Origin: Ignavibacteriota bacterium
GTDB lineage: Bacteria; Bacteroidota; Ignavibacteria; UBA10030
Direction: 5' to 3'
Assembly (NCBI GenBank): GCA_963701295.1
Contig: OY969585.1
Location: 1,536,001-1,600,000 of the forward strand
Length of the DNA stretch: 64,000 nt
Shown: piece by piece, positions 966 to 46,486 of the stretch
Position numbering within the stretch: position 1 is the stretch's first letter
Layout: the number at the start of each line of letters is the position of its first letter
The notes under the pieces: generated by a model
Databases searched by the model: none
What the model was told of the DNA's origin: nothing
Seen by the model: only the letters and a program-made list of their open reading frames with translations
Made by a program: the position numbers and the translations under genes

Positions 966-2699
966 TTATCTTACCTCATTTATCCTAAAAATGGCATAAA
1001 TGACAGGTCCCAGATTTACCGATACTTTATTTTTCTCAAGTAAAATTGTTCCTTTTCCTGAAATCAATTTTGGCTTTTGACATTTATAATTTAAAATGAA
1101 CGAACCCGAGACTTCTCTATCTGCAGGATTGACAACGATAAGTAATCTATCCTTTCCATTTCCCCTGACATATGCGAAAGGATATGTGTTCTTTTCGGCA
1201 TAGACAGGAACAAATTCTGCATAAGCCAATAGCGCTGGTTCTGTATTGTGAAGCTTAATAAGTTCCCTTACTCTATTGAGCAGAGAGTTCGGATCTTTCT
1301 CTTGTGAGGCTACGTCGGGTGCGTCGTTCGATGTATCGACAGCTCTGTAAAGTTTTTCCGGGCTTATAACAGAAAAACCTCTGTTTGGCCCGTTATTCCA
1401 TTGCATGGGTGTTCTGTCTCCGGCACGGCCCATATAACTTCCTTCAATATGAGGCAAGCCTTCTAATTGTTTCATCCCAATCTCATCACCATAATAAATA
1501 AAAGGAGTACCGGGCATCGTTAACATAAAGGCGAAGATTATCGCAATATCTTTATCCGTTCGTCCATTGTTTTTTATTCTTACTAAATCATGGTTCCCAA
1601 AAGGAACAGCAATATATCCATTATCTTTGCTATCATAATATTGATCTAAATAAACTTCAAGAAAATGAGTAATATCGCCCTTGCCCTCAGAATCAAAAAA
1701 ACTATGCCCATCGTGATTCGGATTTCTTATCTTTTCTTTTTGGAATAAATCGTCGTAACCATTGAACCAATGAAAGAAATCGGCATTGAAACCGCCTCTC
1801 ACAGCATCTTTAGGATATGACCATTCAGCAACAGTAAACGTACCTGGATATTCCTTATCAAGAAATTCTCTTACCGTTTTCCAATATTTACTGGTTTCTG
1901 ATCCATCATCATTTTTAACAATTGAACCGGCCATATCAATCCTGAATCCATCGCAACCCATATTGAGCCAAAAACGCATTACATTTTTCATTTCTTCCTT
2001 CAAAGCCAATACATCAGGATGATTTGTCGGTAACTGCCATGGTTGTTGAGGATCGGGCTTTGCATAACCATAATTCAAAGCAGGTTGATGCCAGAAAAAA
2101 TTATTCATAAACATTCCATCACGCTCGCAATATCCTTGTATAAAGTTGCCCTTATATTTATCCATGCCGGGGAACCATGTACTATTCGTCCAAACATACC
2201 AGTTGGAATATTTATTTGGTTTAGGGTCGCACGATGCTTTAAACCATGGATGATCGATGCTTGTATAGCTTGGAACATAATCAATAATAATATGCATACC
2301 TCTTTTGTGTGCTTCGGAAAATAATCTCTTTGCATCATCGTTTGTCCCATAACGCGGGGCCACCTTATAGAAGTCTGTTACATCATAGCCTGCATCCCGA
2401 AATGGTGATTCATAAAACGGGTTAAGCCAAATAGCAGTGACACCCAGACTTTTTACATAATCCAATTTCTCGATAATTCCCTGTAAATCTCCTACACCGT
2501 CGCCATTAGAATCATAATAAGTCTGAGGATAAATTTGGTAAAATACTGCATTGTCTACCCATGCTGGACTTATCGGACGTTGAGCTTTGCCTGTAACAAT
2601 CTGGGTAGCCTTGGAAGAAGTGTTGGCAGCATCTTGTGCCTGTCCTCCCCCCAAAAAACAAGCAACAGAAACGATGGATATAACTAATTTTCTGATCAT
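966..2699 (-). CDS. Secreted GH13 alpha-amylase-family glycosidase (alpha-glucosidase/TreS-like)
   Basis: Signal peptide; YQIYPQTYYDSNGDGVGDL, DAGYDV, and catalytic GFRIDMA, VAEW, NHD; YYGDEIGM. Confidence 0.9.
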   Translation of the reverse strand: MIRKLVISIVSVACFLGGGQAQDAANTSSKATQIVTGKAQRPISPAWVDNAVFYQIYPQTYYDSNGDGVGDLQGIIEKLDYVKSLGVTAIWLNPFYESPFRDAGYDVTDFYKVAPRYGTNDDAKRLFSEAHKRGMHIIIDYVPSYTSIDHPWFKASCDPKPNKYSNWYVWTNSTWFPGMDKYKGNFIQGYCERDGMFMNNFFWHQPALNYGYAKPDPQQPWQLPTNHPDVLALKEEMKNVMRFWLNMGCDGFRIDMAGSIVKNDDGSETSKYWKTVREFLDKEYPGTFTVAEWSYPKDAVRGGFNADFFHWFNGYDDLFQKEKIRNPNHDGHSFFDSEGKGDITHFLEVYLDQYYDSKDNGYIAVPFGNHDLVRIKNNGRTDKDIAIIFAFMLTMPGTPFIYYGDEIGMKQLEGLPHIEGSYMGRAGDRTPMQWNNGPNRGFSVISPEKLYRAVDTSNDAPDVASQEKDPNSLLNRVRELIKLHNTEPALLAYAEFVPVYAEKNTYPFAYVRGNGKDRLLIVVNPADREVSGSFILNYKCQKPKLISGKGTILLEKNKVSVNLGPVIYAIFRINEVR

Positions 2700-2921
2700 A
2701 GTATTTATTCCTCAGTATTTAATTTTTATTATTTCTCGATAATAAGTAATTAAGATACAGATTAAATGCAAGAAGAACATGCCAGCTTTATCCACCTGTT
2801 GTTCCTCATGTGCTGACATGACGTTTTCCGAGATGGCTGTATGTTGCCCATCCAATACCTTGGTAAAATACTCTTCATCATTTTTCACGTAGACAAGAAG
2901 AGGGGGAAAATGCAAGGGGAG

Positions 2922-4034
2922 TTATAATTTGCTGCGCAAAACCTTCTCGATCACATCGAGCATGATTTTTGCAGAGGCATCCCACGTAAGAGACTGTGCG
3001 TATGACAACGCGCCGGCTGCTAACCGCATGCGAAGATGTTCGTCCCGAAGGAGAAGAAGAATCTTTTCAGCAAGCTGTTCGATGTTCCCGTATTCGTAGA
3101 GCAATCCGGTTTCACCGTCGATGACGGCATCACGTAGTCCCGGAACATCGCTCGCAACGGCGGGCGCTCCGCATGCGTTTGCCTCCGTAACCGTTAATCC
3201 CCATCCTTCTTTTGCAGATGTGTTCACGACGATCTGTATCTGGTTTAGCAATCGTACTTTTTCTTCCACCGGAAGGAACCCGGTAAAAGTTGTTGCATGA
3301 TCGATGTGAAGCTCGTGCGCTATTCTCTGGAATCCAGGCTTGCCATCGCCTTCCCCAATGATAGCAAGTTTCGTCTGCGGCAGTTCCTTGAGCACGATAG
3401 CGAAGGCATGCAGTAAATGATCGACACTCTTGTATCTTTTAATCCTTCCAACATAGCCGATCATTGGCTCGGTTCGATGTATGCCCGGAAGTTGCCGGTA
3501 CGTTGTATGGTTGACGGCACAGGGGACAAGAAAAATATTTTCTTTCCGACAGCCATGTGAGAGTAATTCCTGCCGTGTGCTTTCGGAAATTGCCACGAGC
3601 GGAGTATTTCGGTACAAGGAAAGAGCAAGCTGCTCTGCAGCATACACATACGCCGCTGCCGGAACTGAGGCTTCCTTAAAAATGGCATTACCGAACAAGT
3701 GCATCACCATTCCCATCAACGGCTCCCGAATAAATAACGGCGTGTAAAACGGAATTTTATTGATATCGTCTATGACGATATCATAATGTTCACGGCGAAA
3801 TCTTTTTCTGTATTCGAGAGGAACGATATAGTTAAAGAGGTTACGATTTCCTTTTCGTATTACATGAACTCCGTCGATGTTTTCTTCAGATGGAGCGTTC
3901 GCAAATTGGCAGCTGAACAGCGTTACTGAATGCCCTAGTGACGCAATCCGTTTGAAGATTTGATGGAGATACACTTCAGCACCGCCGCCGTACGGATTTT
4001 TAATATCCTGCCAATTCAGAAGAAGAATTTTCAT
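2922..4034 (-). CDS. Glycosyltransferase family 4
   Basis: GGAE N-terminal motif, VGRIKRYKS, EGWGLTVTEANACG. Confidence 0.9.
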   Translation of the reverse strand: MKILLLNWQDIKNPYGGGAEVYLHQIFKRIASLGHSVTLFSCQFANAPSEENIDGVHVIRKGNRNLFNYIVPLEYRKRFRREHYDIVIDDINKIPFYTPLFIREPLMGMVMHLFGNAIFKEASVPAAAYVYAAEQLALSLYRNTPLVAISESTRQELLSHGCRKENIFLVPCAVNHTTYRQLPGIHRTEPMIGYVGRIKRYKSVDHLLHAFAIVLKELPQTKLAIIGEGDGKPGFQRIAHELHIDHATTFTGFLPVEEKVRLLNQIQIVVNTSAKEGWGLTVTEANACGAPAVASDVPGLRDAVIDGETGLLYEYGNIEQLAEKILLLLRDEHLRMRLAAGALSYAQSLTWDASAKIMLDVIEKVLRSKL

Positions 4035-8332: not shown

Positions 8333-10132
8333 TTATTCTTCCAATGATAGAACGGCAAGGAATGCTTCCTGCGGCACTTCTACACTGCCGACTCGTTTCA
8401 TCCGCCGCTTGCCTTCTTTTTGTTTCTCCAGCAGTTTTCTTTTTCGTGAGATGTCGCCGCCGTAACATTTTGCCAGCACGTTCTTGCGAATGGCGCTGAG
8501 TGATTCACGCGCAATCACTTTACTGCCGATAGCGGCTTGTATTGCCACCTCAAACATTTGACGTGGAATCAGCTCCCGAAGTTTCGAGCAAAGTTTGCGT
8601 CCCCATTCATACGATTTCACACGGTGGACGATGGTGGAAAGTGCATCAACTGGTTCCCCATTCAACAAAATGTCCAATTTTACGAGGTCAGAATCGCGAT
8701 ACTCAAGAAAATCATAGTCTAATGAAGCATAACCACGCGAGAGTGATTTAAGTTTATCGTAGAAATCGAAAATAATTTCAGATAATGGCAGTTCAAAATG
8801 GATATCGGCACGCTCTGGACTGAGATAAGTAGTGTTACGGTGAATACCGCGTCGGTCCATACAGAGTTTCATAATGTTGCCGATGTATTCTGTCGGTGTG
8901 ATGATTTGTGCCTTCACGAATGGCTCTTCTACTTTTTCAATCTTGCCGGCATCCGGCATAAGCGAGGGATTATCGACAAAGAGAACATCTTTGTCTGTCT
9001 TTGTAACGCGGTACTCGACGTTCGGTACTGTATTGATGAGGTGCTGGTTGTATTCGCGTTCCAATCGTTCACGGACGATTTCCATATGAAGAAGTCCGAG
9101 AAATCCGGCACGGAATCCGAATCCAAGGGCAACGGAGGATTCAGGTTCGAAGATGAGTGAAGAATCGTTCAATTTCAGTTTGTCGAGCGCGTCGCGCAAC
9201 TCGCCAAAGTCATCACTGTTGGATGGATACATACCGCTGAAGACCATCGGCTTGGCTTCTTTGTAACCCGGAAGCGGTTCTGCAGCAGGATTATCTACGA
9301 GCGTAATCGTATCGCCGACTTTCGTGTCGTGTACATCTTTGACATTCGCAATGATGTAACCGACATCGCCCGCAGAAAGTGAACCGATTCGTTTTCTCTG
9401 CATCTCGAGAATACCGATATCTTCTGCTTGAAATTCCTGCCCCTTTGAGAAGAACCGAATCTTATCTTTTTCGTGCACGGTTCCTTCCATTACACGAATG
9501 TAGGCTATTGCTCCGCGGTACTCATCAAACACTGAATCGAAGATCAATGCTTTCAGCGGCGCGTTCGGATCGCCTTTCGGAGCGGAAATACGCGAGACGA
9601 TAGCTTCGAGCACTTCCTCCACCCCTATGCCGGATTTTGCACTGCCCATGAGAATTTCTTCTTCCGTACACCCGATGAGATCGATTACCTGCTTCTTCAC
9701 CATGTCGATCATCGTCTTAGCGCTTGGTAGATCGATTTTATTGATGAACGGAATAATTTCAAGTCCGGCGTCGATAGCGAGATACAGATTGGAGATGGTC
9801 TGTGCTTCTACACCCTGCGTTGCATCTACCACCAGAATCGCACCTTCGCAAGCGGCAAGCGAGCGCGAGACTTCGTACGTGAAGTCTACATGACCCGGCG
9901 TGTCGATGAGATTTAATGTATAACTCTTTTTGTTGCGGGCTTGATACCTGATCTGGATTGCGTGTAGCTTAATGGTGATGCCGCGTTCCTGCTCAAGATC
10001 CATGTCATCGAGCATTTGCTTCGTCAGGTCACGGGTAGCAACGGTGCCGGTATATTCTAACAAACGGTCGGCGAGTGTCGATTTACCGTGGTCGATGTGA
10101 GCGATAATACAAAAATTGCGGATATGTTCCAT
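8333..10132 (-). CDS. lepA: Translation elongation factor 4
   Basis: [49 protein letters not shown]. Confidence 0.98.
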
Positions 10133-10462: not shown

Positions 10463-11053
10463 TTAGCGAAGGGGAATCTGAAATCGGATTTTTGCGTTGC
10501 CGCCCAGATCATCGGAGACATTAAAGTCATACAATGTTGCACCGACATATGCATCTATAATATTAAGAAAGTATGTGAGAGCGAGGTAGAAGATAAATTC
10601 GTCGCGTTGATTGTGATAAAATTCGCGAAAACTTAGTATATATGGATTGCCGGTATGATTTATCGTATCCGATCGAACAGATTCTGAGTATTGTCCCCGA
10701 TAATCCATGTATTGATTATTTGCTTGGATCGCACTTGAAGCGAAATAATACCCAAATCCCCAAATTAATGGAATAGTATAATACCGATGGGCGTACACTT
10801 GTCCTGACCCGGGCAGGATTGCAGAAAACAACATTGCGCGATTACCCGATTTTGCCTGTCTCTCATCGGACAATTTCATACTGTTAAATTGATATTGCAG
10901 TGTGTCGCGAGAAGTGGGAAGCGTTTCTATTGTATCAGGTTTGATGAGAGCGGAAGTGACTTTTGCTTGTGCGGTTGAATCGTTTATTGACAATACAAAG
11001 ACAAGAGCAAGACTTACAATACTCCATGGTGTGAATGATCGGTTTCTCATCAA
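10463..11053 (-). CDS. DUF5683 family protein
   Basis: SAILPGSGQVY and NIIDAYVGA motifs; usual position downstream of parB in Bacteroidota-related lineages. Confidence 0.75.
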   Translation of the reverse strand: MMRNRSFTPWSIVSLALVFVLSINDSTAQAKVTSALIKPDTIETLPTSRDTLQYQFNSMKLSDERQAKSGNRAMLFSAILPGSGQVYAHRYYTIPLIWGFGYYFASSAIQANNQYMDYRGQYSESVRSDTINHTGNPYILSFREFYHNQRDEFIFYLALTYFLNIIDAYVGATLYDFNVSDDLGGNAKIRFQIPLR

Positions 11054-40463: not shown

Positions 40464-41921
40464 ATGAGTGTTTCTGTGATTGAATTACATCGGGGAGATG
40501 AATTACAGCTAGAGATAACAGACGCGGCATTCGAAGGAAAAGCCGTCGCACGTCATGAGGGATTGGTCATATTTGTTGAGAATGCTGTGCCCGGCGATCT
40601 TGTTACTGCAAAGTTTCTGAAGATTAAAAAGAGTTTTGCAGAAGCAAAACTCGTGCGTGTGGAACGCCCGTCCCCGTTGCGCGTGGAGCCGCGTTGCAAG
40701 TACTTTGGTGTGTGCGGCGGATGCAAGTGGCAGCATGTCGATTATCAGGCACAGCTTCGTTTCAAACAGCAGCAAGTTGTAGACGCATTCGAACGAATCG
40801 GTGGTTTCTCGAATATTCAGATCTCATCGATTATCGGAGCAGACGAGATTTACTTTTATCGTGGAAAAATGGAATATTCGTTTGCCGAAAAACAATGGTT
40901 GTCTTTTCCGCCGCAAAAATCGAAAGAAGAAATGATCTCTCAGGGAGTACTCTTAGAACATCAGCAGTCGTCGATATTTCTTGGTTTGCATGTTCCCCAG
41001 CGGTACGATAAGGTTCTGGATATTGACGAGTGCTATCTTCAATCTCATTCCTCTAATCAGATATTAAACTTTACAAGAGATTTTGCCCGTCGGAATCGTT
41101 TGAATGTATATGACTCTGACCACAACACTGGGTTTCTCCGTTTCCTCGTTATCCGTGAGAGTAAGAGGGAAAAAGAAATGATGGTGAATCTTGTGACGTT
41201 TGAAAACCGTCCTGATGTGATGGAGCAATATACGGCAGAGTTGAATACGAATGTAGGTGAAGTGACGACAGTGGTGAATACGATTAACACCAAGAAAGCA
41301 CAAATAGCATTCGGCGAAACAGAGATGGTTTATCTTGGCAATGGATGGATTCATGAACTCCTTGGGAGCCGTCACTTCTCAATTTCTGCAAGTTCATTTT
41401 TCCAAACGAATGTGGCGCAGGCGGAGAAGCTCTATTATGCGGTGAAAGAACTTGGCGCGTTCAAATCCACAGATAGTGTGTATGATCTTTACTCCGGCAC
41501 TGGTTCCATTGCTCTTTTCATTTCGGATGCAGTCAAGGAAGTAATTGGGATTGAATCTGTCGAAAGTGCGATCCGTGATGCGGAAAAGAATGCACGGGAG
41601 AATGGTATTACCAATTGCCGGTTTTTACTTGGTGATTTGAAAGACCGATTGACAAAAGATACAGAATGGATGTCATCTCATCCGAAACCCGATGTACTGA
41701 TCATAGATCCACCGCGTAACGGTATGCATCCAAAAGTTGTTGAGGAAATAGCAGCGATAGCGCCGGAACGGATCGTCTATGTAAGCTGTAATCCGGCAAC
41801 GCAAGCGCGCGATGTCAAGTTGTTGTGTGCCGAGAAGTATCTGCTTATGAAGCTTCAACCGGTGGATATGTTCCCGCATACATTCCACATCGAGAATGTA
41901 GCATTATTGCACAAAAGGTAA
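40464..41921 (+). CDS. rlmD: 23S rRNA (uracil-1939-C5)-methyltransferase
   Basis: TRAM domain, C..FGVCGGC, SFFQTN, DPPR, YVSCNP, DMFPHT.HIE. Confidence 0.92.
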   Translation: MSVSVIELHRGDELQLEITDAAFEGKAVARHEGLVIFVENAVPGDLVTAKFLKIKKSFAEAKLVRVERPSPLRVEPRCKYFGVCGGCKWQHVDYQAQLRFKQQQVVDAFERIGGFSNIQISSIIGADEIYFYRGKMEYSFAEKQWLSFPPQKSKEEMISQGVLLEHQQSSIFLGLHVPQRYDKVLDIDECYLQSHSSNQILNFTRDFARRNRLNVYDSDHNTGFLRFLVIRESKREKEMMVNLVTFENRPDVMEQYTAELNTNVGEVTTVVNTINTKKAQIAFGETEMVYLGNGWIHELLGSRHFSISASSFFQTNVAQAEKLYYAVKELGAFKSTDSVYDLYSGTGSIALFISDAVKEVIGIESVESAIRDAEKNARENGITNCRFLLGDLKDRLTKDTEWMSSHPKPDVLIIDPPRNGMHPKVVEEIAAIAPERIVYVSCNPATQARDVKLLCAEKYLLMKLQPVDMFPHTFHIENVALLHKR

Positions 41922-41923
41922 TA

Positions 41924-43294
41924 TTAATTCATTATGCTTCTAACTTCTTCAATAGATATAGGTTTAGAAATTATTTTAAGTTGCCTATCAATCAAAAACA
42001 TTGTTGGTGTAGCGTAAATAAAATAATTATTCGCAGCTTCTCCATCCCAACCCTTTAGATCAGAAGCATTAATTAGTGAAGAACAATTACCTTTTATAAA
42101 ACTTTTCCAATCTTCTTTTTTTGCGTCAAGAGAAATCGCAAGCACCTCAAATTTTTTTCCGGTTTTATCTTCCTTCATTTTATTCAACTTAGGTAATATT
42201 TCTTTGCAATGCGGGCACCAGCTTGCATAAAAAACAATTAGGATTTTCTCGGCATCAATGCTACTTAGATTTATTTCTCTTCCGTTAATATCGGGGATAG
42301 AAATATTCGGCACCGTGTTGCCAATTTTAAAATTCTTCGCCTGCTCAATTCTCCTTTTAATTAATCCTTCCGTTTTTACATCCAAACAGAGATCATCTTT
42401 TATAACATAGTTTTCCACTATGTAATCGAGCACTTTATCGAAGCCGAATTTCTTAAAGCCGTCAATCAAGTATTCAGTGATATGTTGATAGACAAGCTGA
42501 TTCACTTTTGCTTTGTTAAGAATCGAATCAACAGCTCTCATAAATTCTTTTTCGAGAAGTTCTTTAGGAAGCTGTGGGTTGCGGTAATATGTTAAATACT
42601 CAATCGCTTTGTTGGTAAAAAGATCTGAATTGATCAGTAAAGTATTATTGAAATCAACATTATCTAAAGCGTGTACTTTGAGATAGTCAAGCTGTCTTTC
42701 CAAAGAGATAGAACCATTTATAACAGGAAGCTGAGCTGAACGAATATATTTTGCAATGAATGAATTAGGATTATTCTGAGCAGTTACATTTACAAATTCT
42801 AAGTATTCGTTTTGTATTTGGGTTAATCTGTTTTGTGTTGCATGGTAATAACTATCATCTTTTGGATAGCGGGCAAGGATAAGTTGAAGCAATTCTGTTT
42901 TGGTTTTGTATGCTTTGTTAAGAATAACAAAAGAGCAATAAAGTTTATTACTTTCAGAATCAATCACTTCCATGCTGTCTAAGATATTATTTGCGTCTGT
43001 CCTTAGCTCAATATCTTTTCCGTCATAAATAAAATCGATCAATTTATTGGTGCCAAAAGTTAAGCGGTAAAATCCGGCATGAAATTTTTGAGGATCGGAT
43101 TGATAAATAATTATCCCATCTTCATTCGAATTAACCGAATCGATCCTTGCTGTTTTTTCTCCGCTTAAAGAATAGAAAATAAGTTTACCGGCTTTGTAAT
43201 TAGACAAATAGACACTAATGGATTGGGAGTAACTCTTGAATTGAATGTATAATAAAAATAGAATAGAAATAGAGACTGCTGTTTTTCTATTCAT
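41924..43294 (-). CDS. Secreted TlpA/redoxin-type thiol-disulfide oxidoreductase with long N-terminal domains
   Basis: Signal peptide; C-terminal FYASWCPHC...YFIYATPTMFLID; AT-rich. Confidence 0.85.
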   Translation of the reverse strand: MNRKTAVSISILFLLYIQFKSYSQSISVYLSNYKAGKLIFYSLSGEKTARIDSVNSNEDGIIIYQSDPQKFHAGFYRLTFGTNKLIDFIYDGKDIELRTDANNILDSMEVIDSESNKLYCSFVILNKAYKTKTELLQLILARYPKDDSYYHATQNRLTQIQNEYLEFVNVTAQNNPNSFIAKYIRSAQLPVINGSISLERQLDYLKVHALDNVDFNNTLLINSDLFTNKAIEYLTYYRNPQLPKELLEKEFMRAVDSILNKAKVNQLVYQHITEYLIDGFKKFGFDKVLDYIVENYVIKDDLCLDVKTEGLIKRRIEQAKNFKIGNTVPNISIPDINGREINLSSIDAEKILIVFYASWCPHCKEILPKLNKMKEDKTGKKFEVLAISLDAKKEDWKSFIKGNCSSLINASDLKGWDGEAANNYFIYATPTMFLIDRQLKIISKPISIEEVRSIMN

Positions 43295-43437
43295 CTCATA
43301 AAATTCTTTTTATTTTTTGCAAACGTACGCTTTTATGCACGCTAAATCAATGAATGCTTTTAAATTCTTTCCATCATTTCTTCTTTTCTTCTTTCCTTTA
43401 ACCCGTCAACCATAATAAATCATCCATCAAACATCTT

Positions 43438-44199
43438 CTAATCCTTGATGCAGCGAACACTCAAACCGAGTGTTTTATTGAAAGGGAAGTAGTTGACATT
43501 ACTATTGTCGAGGACCAGGTACATGCCCCATGCGCCGCCAGTATTGTACTCCGTAGAACTCCAAAAGTGAGCGTAGTCATTAACGACGAAGGAATTATCG
43601 ATGTTGCGGTAGCCCGCAAGCAACGCAGAAAACCCGCTGGTATTTGTACCAACACCGCTTCCCGTTCCTTGCCCTACTGCTTTTAATGCATTTCCATCAT
43701 TGCTTACTGTTGTTGATAACGTTTCAAATTCTGTATATGTTGGTATGTGCCAACCGGTTGGGCAAATGCCTTGTACATTTCCAGAAAAAGCTGGACTAGG
43801 TGATGTTGTATTTGTAGCTCCATTTAGATATTGAACTGCTTCAGCCCATTGGTATAAACCGCCGTATGCTGTACAATTTGCCTCATCATCGCTGTAGCAG
43901 TATTTTTCTATTGTACTGTTATTCGTTTGGTCTGTGCTACCGGCTATTCTTATTCCTAAATTAAGGTTCTCTTTTAACCAGCATTGGCTGCCTATTACTA
44001 CAGTGGTATAAGTTTGCCCAGCATATGTAATGGTACTAGTTCCACAAGTAAAAGCAACATTAGTAAATGTTAAATTAATAATATCGTGAACCCAAATATC
44101 CTCCGTTGTGTTATCTGCCTTCTTTACGCTCATCTTATATTGCGCAAATATTGCACTAGTCCCTAACACAAATATCATGGTAAATAATATCTTTTTCAT
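43438..44199 (-). CDS. Secreted FISUMP (Fib_succ_major) domain protein; probable DGR-type target
   Basis: YTTVVIGSQCWLKENL, YGGLYQW, QGICPTGWHIPT, SGFSALLAGYR, FWSSTE, GLSVRCIKD. Confidence 0.9.
   Translation of the reverse strand: MKKILFTMIFVLGTSAIFAQYKMSVKKADNTTEDIWVHDIINLTFTNVAFTCGTSTITYAGQTYTTVVIGSQCWLKENLNLGIRIAGSTDQTNNSTIEKYCYSDDEANCTAYGGLYQWAEAVQYLNGATNTTSPSPAFSGNVQGICPTGWHIPTYTEFETLSTTVSNDGNALKAVGQGTGSGVGTNTSGFSALLAGYRNIDNSFVVNDYAHFWSSTEYNTGGAWGMYLVLDNSNVNYFPFNKTLGLSVRCIKD
43450..43611 (-). repeat. Putative DGR variable repeat in the FISUMP gene
   Basis: 26 of 54 codons end in C and 44 in C/T, versus 3 of 35 ending in C just upstream (hand count). Confidence 0.6.
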
Positions 44200-44219
44200 T
44201 TTTAATTCCTTCTCAATAT

Positions 44220-45062
44220 TTATTTTATCATTAACATTTTTATAGTACTTGAATAATTAGCAGAACTCATTTTACAGATATAAACACCGCTTGCTAATCT
44301 GCTTCCATCTAATGTTGCTTCATAGCTTCCGGCTTTTTTATTCTCATTTACGAGAGAAGCTACTTCTCTTCCTAAAACATCAAAAACTTTCAGAGTAACA
44401 AAACCATCAATCGGGAGGTTATATACAATTTTTGTTTGCGGATTAAATGGATTTGGAAAGTTATGCTTTAATGCAAAGTTTGCCGGTGCTTCTATAGTTA
44501 CTTCAACAACATTGCTGTATTCGAACTTGCCGTCAAGGTTTATCTGTTTTAAACGGTACTGGAATTTTGTTCCTTCTTGTGGTGTATCTTTGAATGAATA
44601 CGTTTTTGGACTGTTGCTGTTTCCATGTCCTTGAACAAAACCAATCTTCTCCCACACACCCCTGCCTTCGGCTTCCCCTCTCGAGAGGGGATTAAGGGGT
44701 GTGCTTCTTTCTATCTCAAACCCGTAATTGTTCACTTCAGTGGCAGTATACCAAGATAACGTAATTGTTTTCTGATCTACCGTTGCAATGAAACTCACAA
44801 GTTCAACCGGTAATAATGATCCGCCGTTGCTTGCACCAAATGTAATGTTCGAAATGGTTGACATTCCATCAGTTGTTACATCAGAACTAGCTAGTTGGAA
44901 AATAATATCAGTTCCATTAAAAGTGATTTTTGTTAATCCTGAGATGTCAATTGTTTTCTTGGAGCTATTAGTATAAAGAACATTAAGATAGGTTTGAGAA
45001 TAGAGTTGAACTGAAAAGAAAAACATAAATAAGATATTTAAAGCATTAATAGAATGTTTCAT
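44220..45062 (-). CDS. T9SS type A sorting-domain protein with two N-terminal ~26-aa repeats
   Basis: Signal peptide; LPVELVSF...ATEVNNYGFEIER...Y RLKQINLDG; CTD NFPNPFNPQTKI...LASGVY...KMLMIK. Confidence 0.88.
   Translation of the reverse strand: MKHSINALNILFMFFFSVQLYSQTYLNVLYTNSSKKTIDISGLTKITFNGTDIIFQLASSDVTTDGMSTISNITFGASNGGSLLPVELVSFIATVDQKTITLSWYTATEVNNYGFEIERSTPLNPLSRGEAEGRGVWEKIGFVQGHGNSNSPKTYSFKDTPQEGTKFQYRLKQINLDGKFEYSNVVEVTIEAPANFALKHNFPNPFNPQTKIVYNLPIDGFVTLKVFDVLGREVASLVNENKKAGSYEATLDGSRLASGVYICKMSSANYSSTIKMLMIK
44655..44703. repeat. Palindromic (REP/RPE-like) element inserted in-frame in the T9SS gene
   Basis: Outer CACACCCCT/AGGGGTGTG, inner GCC-TTC-GGC and perfect 18-bp palindrome TCCCCTCTCGAGAGGGGA. 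Confidence 0.7.
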
Positions 45063-45090
45063 TATTCCTCCTTTTGAATATTGGAATCAC

Positions 45091-45196
45091 CTCGTTACCA
45101 ATGTCCTCGTTGGTAACGCAACAAGAAAGAAGCTCTGCTTCATCAGCAATGAAACGGAGTTTCATAATAGTCCGTTACAAAGCAAGAGCTTTGTAA
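45091..45196. repeat. Four-hairpin REP-like element
   Basis: CGTTACCAA/TTGGTAACG, GAAGC/GCTTC, ATGAAAC/GTTTCAT, TTACAAAGC/GCTTTGTAA. Confidence 0.6.
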
Positions 45197-45232
45197 TATT
45201 ATACAAAAGAAAAAGTGCAAAAGAGCAAAGGA

Positions 45233-46348
45233 TTATCTCTTCTGGAGAACATGAAACCCGAGGCAGTTGTAGCGAGCGCCCGGACCGTATCCGCCGCGGT
45301 AGAACACGCGACAGTCATCATTGACGTTGAGCCAGGAGCAACCGCGACCCACACCTGATGTGCCGCACCACTCCCACACATTACCAGACATATCAAAAAT
45401 TCCCAATTCATTCGCTCTCTTTGCGCCTACTTCGTGTGTTTTTTTACCGGAGTTACCATCATACCACGCAACTTTATCAATTATGTTGCTGCCACTGTAT
45501 TCATATCATTTGGAATTTTCTCCACCTCGGACAGCGTATTCCCATTCATTTTCTTCCGGTAGGCGAACGGTTGTTCCTGTTTCTTTGCTCAACCAATTGC
45601 AAAAAGCGACAGCATCGGCAACATTCACGTTGATAACCGGCTGTTTTCCTCTACCAAAATCTGCACTGAGCTTATCGTATCCTGTCGCTTCGCAAAACTT
45701 ATCATACTGATCGAAGGTAATCTCCGTTGCAGATATATAAAAATCTCCTCCCGTTTTGCCTTTTACTAAAATCCAAGTGATTAAAGATTGCTTATCACGC
45801 TCTATACGAAGAAGAGATAATTTCATCTCAAGTTGAGTGATTTTATCCTGCTCCTGTGTAATCATTTCAGGTTCGCCATAAACATAAATTGGGACATTAC
45901 CGCCAAATGCGTTTTGACCATAGGTTTTTCCAATAAAGTGATGGAAAGTGGGACCATTGCCACCGTAATTATTGGCTGTAACACTTTTCAAGCTATAGTT
46001 TTTGACTTGTAGATTTGCTTTTCCTGAAACAAATGCTCCGAAATCATTAATTCTATTCTGGTCATGCGAGCCATCTATATTGACGGGGTAGGCATTTCCA
46101 TAAACAAGTATCTGATTTTCATCACGATCAACAATTTCGCCCATAATCCAAAAACGAGGGTACTTTAAATTTAGGGATAATATTAATGACTTAGAATTCT
46201 CAATTTTCGTTTCGATGTCCGAAATTCACTGTTCAATGGTACGAGTGTGTGAAGGTGTTTTCTTTTTTTCTTGAGCGTCTATCACATGGGAAGAAAAAAT
46301 GATTGCAAAGATAATTAAGGGAAGAATTGAACAGGAATGTTTCATCAT
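45233..46348 (-). pseudogene. Secreted FGE-sulfatase (C-type-lectin-fold) protein with two in-frame TGA stops; probable DGR-type target
   Basis: One frame from ATG 46348/46345 (MKHSCSILPLIIFAIIF...) through TGA 46226-46228 and TGA 45506-45508 to TAA 45233. It contains RLPEENEWEYAVRGG, NELGIFDMSGNVWEWC and RGCSW...LGFH. Confidence 0.85.
45254..45346 (-). repeat. Putative DGR variable repeat in the FGE gene
   Basis: 19 of 31 codons end in C and 26 in C/T (hand count); GC-rich block in an AT-rich gene. Confidence 0.6.
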
Positions 46349-46486
46349 TCAAATTCCTTTCGAAATGACGGCTCCGCCAGAAAACGGCGAACGCATAAAA
46401 TGCGAAAGCATTGCAGATTATCAATTTATGACATCACTAACCTTTGATGTTTTTTAAGGAGGAATCGTTTCATGGAAAAATCTCTC

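Follow-up and report, generated by a model that had tools for sequence, protein, structure and literature searches.

A gene in the window (the 64,000-nt stretch of an Ignavibacteriota genome analyzed here) raises the question of whether its C-terminal end was written by a diversity-generating retroelement (DGR) and, if so, whether that element is still at work. The gene occupies positions 43438-44199 on the minus strand and encodes 253 amino acids in an intact frame. It matches the Fib_succ_major/FISUMP models PF09603 (E 6.7e-31, 108 bits against a cut-off of 33.9) and TIGR02145 (E 1.3e-41), and is below the cut-off of PF07603 (Lcl_C). By its PF09603 match it would belong among the targets with CLec2 variable repeats (DUF1566, DUF823 or Fib_succ_major domains, e.g., Legionella LdtA). 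These form category d, with 51 of 372 DGRs, in Wu et al. 2018 (PMC5758913).

The N-terminus is signal-peptide-like when read by eye and has no obvious lipoprotein cysteine. A structural model predicted from an alignment of 64 sequences (pLDDT 96) matches C-type-lectin folds. The best structural match is Treponema denticola TvpA (PDB 2y3c; Z 9.0, rmsd 3.7, 166 aligned); InvE, Lcl and PorK/N are within 1 Z unit of it, and Mtd and TaqVP have Z values of 6.5 and 6.3, respectively. TvpA is a DGR variable protein with the same fold and 11% sequence identity, although a shared fold shows no function. A Foldseek search with the model gave no match at E<=0.001, and there are no sequence relatives among solved structures. 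The protein would be an exported ligand binder.

The C-terminal segment stands out by its codon usage. A recount of positions 43450-43611 agrees exactly with the initial annotation: the 54 codons include 26 with C and 3 with A as the last base. That annotation set this against 35 codons just upstream with 3 ending in C and 20 in A. The count is real for stretches starting at codons 149-153 (about 43640-43755), but these do not lie directly upstream; the 35 codons immediately 5' of 43611 have 5 ending in C and 14 in A. The skew itself is not a chance property, since among the genome's 2138 open reading frames with 200 aa or more, only 11 contain a 54-codon stretch as extreme, and in only two is it within the last 60 codons. 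Derivability of the variable-looking codons from AAC had also been put forward, but this is trivially true of any NNC codon and was therefore tested on a real template repeat (TR) from a relative: 18 of the 26 C-ending codons face AAC there, as counted by hand from the codon table. Homology to this TR spans 43631 to 43440, so that the variable region does begin at the SGFSALLAG boundary, as proposed. The resulting orphan variable repeat (VR), of the CLec2/Fib_succ_major type, is 192 nt long (43440-43631, minus strand), comprises codons 190-253 of 253, forms the C-terminal end of the C-type-lectin-fold domain and is one codon shorter than the relative's template.

Comparison with the template repeat of a relative

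Among 40 relatives, one genome (G025) has two close FISUMP genes and one copy of the C-terminus only. It carries a canonical DGR cassette with a reverse transcriptase (RT, RVT_1), an Avd-like gene and a TR. The Avd-like gene is below the curated cut-off in NCBIfam and above the cut-off in Pfam. The order on contig C20 is target, hairpins, GIY-YIG gene, avd, TR, RT, GIY-YIG gene, PIN gene, IS200 and AhpC/TSA gene. In a comparison of this TR with its own target, adenine sites account for 36 mismatches (of 77) and all other sites for one (of 118). A distant second target, which is remote from the cassette and has no clear hairpin, differs from the TR at 36 of 75 adenine sites and 10 of 117 others.

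The window VR (read from 43631 to 43440) is homologous to this bona fide TR, and its differences are adenine-biased. Mismatches are found at 40 of 75 adenine sites and 20 of 117 other sites (p 2e-7), as obtained with neutral scoring; the scoring of the first alignment had favored adenine mismatches. The bias on which the initial annotation had staked its reading is thus present, and both a TR and an RT exist in a related genome. Adenine bias alone is weak evidence, however, because template adenines sit in variable codons. Retention of the third codon base is the stronger DGR test. The G025 TR has 28 AAY codons, of which 22 are altered at positions 1-2 in the window VR, and the third base is kept in 19 of these 22 (86%); codon usage alone would give 6.4-6.8 (P about 1e-8). 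The change in pattern is also visible in a comparison of the window gene with the G025 target: in the part of the gene preceding the VR, mismatches at codon positions 1, 2 and 3 number 25/25/69, and within the VR 24/22/18 (p 2e-4). The proposed DGR origin of 43440-43631 is thereby backed by the real TR of a relative.

The G025 TR is a sibling of the parent template of the window VR, and not that parent itself. It differs from the VR at 17% of non-adenine sites. Other TRs differ from the G025 TR to a similar extent (19 of 115 and 21 of 116 sites), and 14 of the 192 VR positions fit none of three TRs. For non-adjacent (trans) targets, the criterion stated in Wu et al. is A-to-N differences only (PMC5758913), from which the window VR departs by this same 17%. 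A metagenome scan for the parent TR with a 21-nt constant motif gave three loci, none of them a TR. Because the parent was not found and the G025 TR is as far from the VR as TRs are from each other, the age of a cassette loss is not readable from these distances.

The two small GIY-YIG genes of the G025 cassette (locus L023, contig C20, positions 10725-11000 and 8457-8747, minus strand) are a separate observation. The beginning of avd is interrupted by the first of them. Each gene starts directly behind a short CCC(C/T)GTG...CACGGGG-like motif and terminates in a similar one, which suggests a small mobile unit that targets these DGR cassettes. The same unit start is found after the FISUMP stop codon at two other loci, L062 and L077.

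Absence of machinery and apparent stasis of the tail

The genome of the window consists of one contig of 3,643,693 bases, is 99.32% complete and contains a single FISUMP gene. The initial annotation had looked to a whole-genome search for a TR lying near an RT gene, and that search found neither. No RT was detected with the PF00078 profile, which was positive in 3 of 14 control genomes, nor with the G025 RT as query at E<=1, nor with a profile of 13 RTs run over six frames read through stop codons (best E 0.28). No TR was detected by blastn or by nhmmer with a profile of three TRs; a weak nhmmer match (E 0.023) proved to be unrelated sequence, as did the three most AAC-rich stretches of the genome. 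In an adenine-aware scan the best non-self sites scored 0.51-0.56, compared with 0.78-0.80 for control TRs. The genome thus holds neither the RT nor the TR with adenine-only differences that would mark an active DGR. The bAvd model gave five matches, none above the cut-off and none near the locus; other four-helix-bundle genes also match this model.

The 70 nt after the stop codon have a predicted fold energy of 0.0, i.e., no hairpin is predicted downstream of the VR. All five cassette-linked targets have a stem-loop after the stop, with values from -5.4 to -21.2. In BPP-1 a downstream hairpin is required for efficient homing (PMC3240598). Viral contigs gave three pattern matches, none of which encodes a relative of the protein.

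An ortholog on a metagenome contig from another lineage (L150) provides a measure of stasis. It has the same three genes (T9SS-tail, FISUMP and AhpC/TSA), with 96.8% identity over 3.2 kb. The VRs differ at 6 of 195 nt, compared with 67 of 2781 in the remainder of the three genes (p 0.48). At template-adenine sites, 4 of 75 differ between the window and L150, compared with 38 of 75 between the two G025 targets (p 3e-10). In this single comparison of two sequences, the low figure indicates that the window VR has probably not been fully rewritten since the two copies split. Four of the six VR differences fall on template adenines and three are in two adjacent codons (p 0.17), possibly a trace of late mutagenesis. 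For the FISUMP gene, 14 changes give a dN/dS ratio of 0.69 between the two copies; its neighbors have 0.51 and 0.28, and the changes are too few for a verdict on selection.

The window VR is therefore most likely frozen rather than still being diversified: a DGR most likely produced it, but it does not belong to an active element. The initial annotation had offered two options, a relic or a remote target of a DGR elsewhere in the genome. The evidence supports the relic and not the remote target, as the searches gave no RT, TR or downstream hairpin and the ortholog has a nearly unchanged VR.

The genomic island and its history

The gene lies in a low-GC insert (41924-46450; 36.5% GC, with flanks of 43.7% and 42.3%) between rlmD-like and hydrolase genes. 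Downstream is a 143-bp spacer (43295-43437, minus strand). Related loci carry a hairpin, avd, TR and RT at this place; here there are none of these, only a short tract with a period of about 7 bp after the stop codon (43395-43437, minus strand), in which L150 has 14 extra bases, equal to two units. The spacer is followed by a thioredoxin-like AhpC/TSA gene (41924-43294, minus strand), and the same gene is found downstream of the intact G025 cassette and of an avd stub at locus L066. On the upstream side is a gene with a T9SS-type C-terminal sorting domain (44220-45062, minus strand), a recurrent upstream neighbor of FISUMP genes.

Beyond it is an FGE-sulfatase-domain pseudogene (45233-46348, minus strand) with in-frame TGA codons at 46226-46228 and 45506-45508. 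Its last approximately 117 nt (about 45237-45353), located 1.6 kb upstream, represent a second orphan repeat, of a different, FGE-type DGR. The last 40 codons include 20 ending in C and 2 in A. In a comparison of the repeat with the TR of an FGE-type cassette in genome G304 (target, avd-like gene, RT and TR), the adenine sites show 25 mismatches in 38 and the other sites 15 in 79 (p 1e-6). It is absent from L150. Two different DGR types have thus left marks in one 4.5-kb island.

The rlmD-like and hydrolase genes are directly adjacent in 5 of 15 genus relatives. In nine others the gene after rlmD is the one that precedes the block in L150, and the T9SS-tail/FISUMP/AhpC block is present in none of the 15. 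The 3' end of the rlmD-like gene (41900-41927) is an apparent variable junction, followed by three different arrangements in the genus relatives. Identity to L150 is 96.8% in the block and 86.4% in the 250 nt of rlmD next to it, a difference that, over this short stretch, suggests a recent transfer of the block between species.

A survey of 76 FISUMP loci, taken from the best 80 of 350 matches, contains one locus with an adjacent close RT and avd (L082) and one with a truncated avd (L075). An AhpC/TSA gene lies downstream of the FISUMP gene at 6 of the 76. An RT beside a further locus (L048), at 26% identity, was not counted as a DGR RT, since by its motifs it looks like a group II intron enzyme. 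The relatives can be arranged as a series of decay. Intact cassettes are present in G025 and L082. In G321 (L156, contig C5, about 2570-3900) the hairpin remains, but avd is broken by stop codons, the TR has lost one nucleotide and the RT is cut after about 40 codons by transposase-like sequence, as judged by eye; this cassette lies near the apparent end of a tmRNA gene. L075 has a truncated avd. L066 retains a hairpin and an avd stub of 10 codons before AhpC/TSA, L065 has hairpins only and then AhpC, and the window retains none of these parts.

The explanation that we favor with good confidence is that a DGR cassette, now lost, wrote the window VR and left behind a single fixed variant of a surface predicted to bind a ligand, because the tail differs from a relative's template mainly at adenines and the genome is without RT or TR. 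It is established DGR chemistry that the RT miscopies adenines and that the cDNA replaces the tail of the target. The ancestral locus would have had the order target, hairpin, avd, TR, RT, possible cargo and AhpC/TSA, as in G025. The RT would have copied the TR RNA with adenine miscopying, and the cDNA would have replaced the end of the gene. The hairpin and the avd-TR-RT unit would then have been removed by deletion, and the decay series makes a local deletion the likely route of this loss. The T9SS-tail/FISUMP/AhpC block would have been retained, with a probable transfer between species at the 3' end of rlmD. The protein would now serve as an ordinary C-type-lectin-fold binder, presumably exported.

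The step most open to an alternative is the deletion. The same DGR origin would hold if no cassette ever stood at this locus, the gene having been a remote target, or its tail having been recombined from a diversified paralog, and having arrived already frozen by horizontal transfer. This is a variant of the relic reading that differs from it only in the deletion step and overlaps the best explanation; it is a close rival, plausible without being probable. G025 itself has a distant second target that lacks a clear hairpin and shows 36/75 against 10/117 mismatches, the block is missing from all 15 genus relatives, close FISUMP genes are missing from all 22 family genomes sampled, and the spacer 43295-43437 has no cassette remnant. 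The body of the window gene before the VR is nearest to four cassette-free genes (L051, L047, L048 and L054). In a tree of 64 pre-VR domains (a quick, weakly resolved search without the remote G025 target, in which 8 of the 61 inner branches reach a support of 95), the window gene lies outside a 35-row group (support 93) that contains all five cassette-bearing rows; the labels are no more clustered than in shuffles, so that the tree supports neither a single origin nor multiple ones. A cassette at this exact site beside rlmD was found in no genome, and together with the position in the tree this makes writing in trans or recombination possible instead of local deletion. Against this reading is the FISUMP-AhpC junction, at which G025 has a complete cassette and L066 a stub of avd, and the recurrence of AhpC/TSA after FISUMP genes at 6 of 76 loci.

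Two other explanations fare worse. It is improbable that the tail is a live remote target, slowly rewritten by an RT and TR on a replicon or region outside the assembly. DGR action in trans is established (PMC5758913), plasmids can be missed by an assembly, and four of the six differences to L150 are at template adenines. However, the assembly is a single, 99.32% complete contig without RT or TR, the hairpin that BPP-1 needs for efficient homing (PMC3240598) is lacking, the VR has diverged from L150 no more than the background, and no relative of the protein was found in viral contigs. Less probable still, to the point of being hard to maintain, is that no DGR was involved and that the segment is either foreign, with its own codon usage, or a case of ordinary surface-loop variation of a lectin domain. 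Any diverged homolog would give about 50% mismatch at adenine sites, since TR adenines are at positions 1-2 of variable residues, and distant homologs do show this. The third-base signal is lost in such homologs, however (37% retention in the farthest 13 tails and 84% in the nearest 20, compared with 86% in the window), and the ends of the segment match the TR ends. The 19 of 22 third bases kept, where about 6.5 are expected, contradict this explanation.

Orphan tails in known systems and across the family

Compared with category d and LdtA (PMC5758913), the window gene is similar in its Fib_succ_major domain, C-terminal VR, AAY-rich template in relatives and adenine-biased differences, and in encoding a likely exported, cysteine-containing protein. 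It differs in that its genome has no RT, TR or hairpin, and in the N-terminus, which by eye has no obvious lipoprotein cysteine. Cyanobacterial CLec paralogs such as all3226 of Nostoc PCC 7120 retain remnant TR-VR homology, and loss of the machinery after selection was suggested for cyanobacteria (Vallota-Eastman et al. 2020, PMC7517822). The Nostoc genome, as described there, retains DGRs, unlike the window genome, which is without an RT and for which stasis was measured against an ortholog. Degenerate DGR loci in Thiohalocapsa PB-PSB1 have missing or pseudogenized machinery, with IS elements implicated in the decay (PMC10907252); the transposase-like sequence seen by eye after the RT fragment in G321 is similar. 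Unlike the window VR, most PB-PSB1 loci continue to be diversified, in part by cassettes of that genome acting in trans. In the mainly open-access literature covered, no paper on orphan FISUMP repeats at the scale of a whole genome was found; the supplements of Wu et al. and Roux et al. may list such loci. The mechanism and the target domain were known beforehand, and loss of the machinery after selection had been proposed in print (PMC7517822). The value of the present locus is in its documentation: a near-complete genome without an RT, a static ortholog and a stepwise decay series at one gene junction. In addition, the template-based third-base test makes past DGR action recognizable where an RT is missing.

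In one draw of 400 class genomes, with E<=1e-40 both for FISUMP genes and for RTs compared with the G025 enzyme, 23 genomes have close FISUMP genes and 4 have an RT, and G025 alone is in both sets. An RT match at E<=1e-10 is present in 7 of the 46 assemblies that contain the 76 FISUMP loci, and is close in 3, counts to be read with the fact that most surveyed assemblies are fragmented and may drop DGR loci. The named homologs among the matches listed are mainly from Ignavibacteria and Bacteroidota assemblies. Third-base retention in 104 homologous tails decreases with increasing distance to the TR, from 84% to 37% (rho -0.68 with AAY third positions excluded; the rho of -0.89 with them included is partly circular). 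By a rough test 54 of the 104 tails have a significant scar and the window ranks 11th, although the number is approximate, as these family-wide figures use adenine-favoring scoring and a null of 0.35 taken from the codon usage of the window genome.

Some unusual arrangements were also seen. Two single open reading frames, of 2843 and 1050 aa (G339, contig C1, 958262-966133; G376, contig C24, 58335-60662), have four and three tandem FISUMP domains, respectively, in genomes without a close RT match. Isolated VR-like tails with few AAC codons are present at L049 (9455-9623) and L063 (1155-1291); the L049 tail matches only the last approximately 43 residues of the domain and is possibly a gene-less remnant.

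A picture of the whole family can be sketched tentatively, and we consider it somewhat less likely than not: the large FISUMP family of Ignavibacteria-like bacteria may be mostly a fossil repertoire, in which a rare mobile avd-TR-RT cassette visits a surface-protein locus, diversifies it and is deleted, while the fixed variants spread by duplication and transfer and their third-base scar fades in a clock-like manner. Relevant here are the scars in 54 of the 104 tails, the single genome with the matching RT among 23 carriers, and the marks of two DGR types in the island of the window. If this picture holds, 'diversify, select, discard' could be tested by comparing orphan tails for stasis and selection. 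What DGRs produce in the long term would then be repertoires of frozen paralogs, uncounted by RT-anchored surveys, from which most DGR products would be missing.
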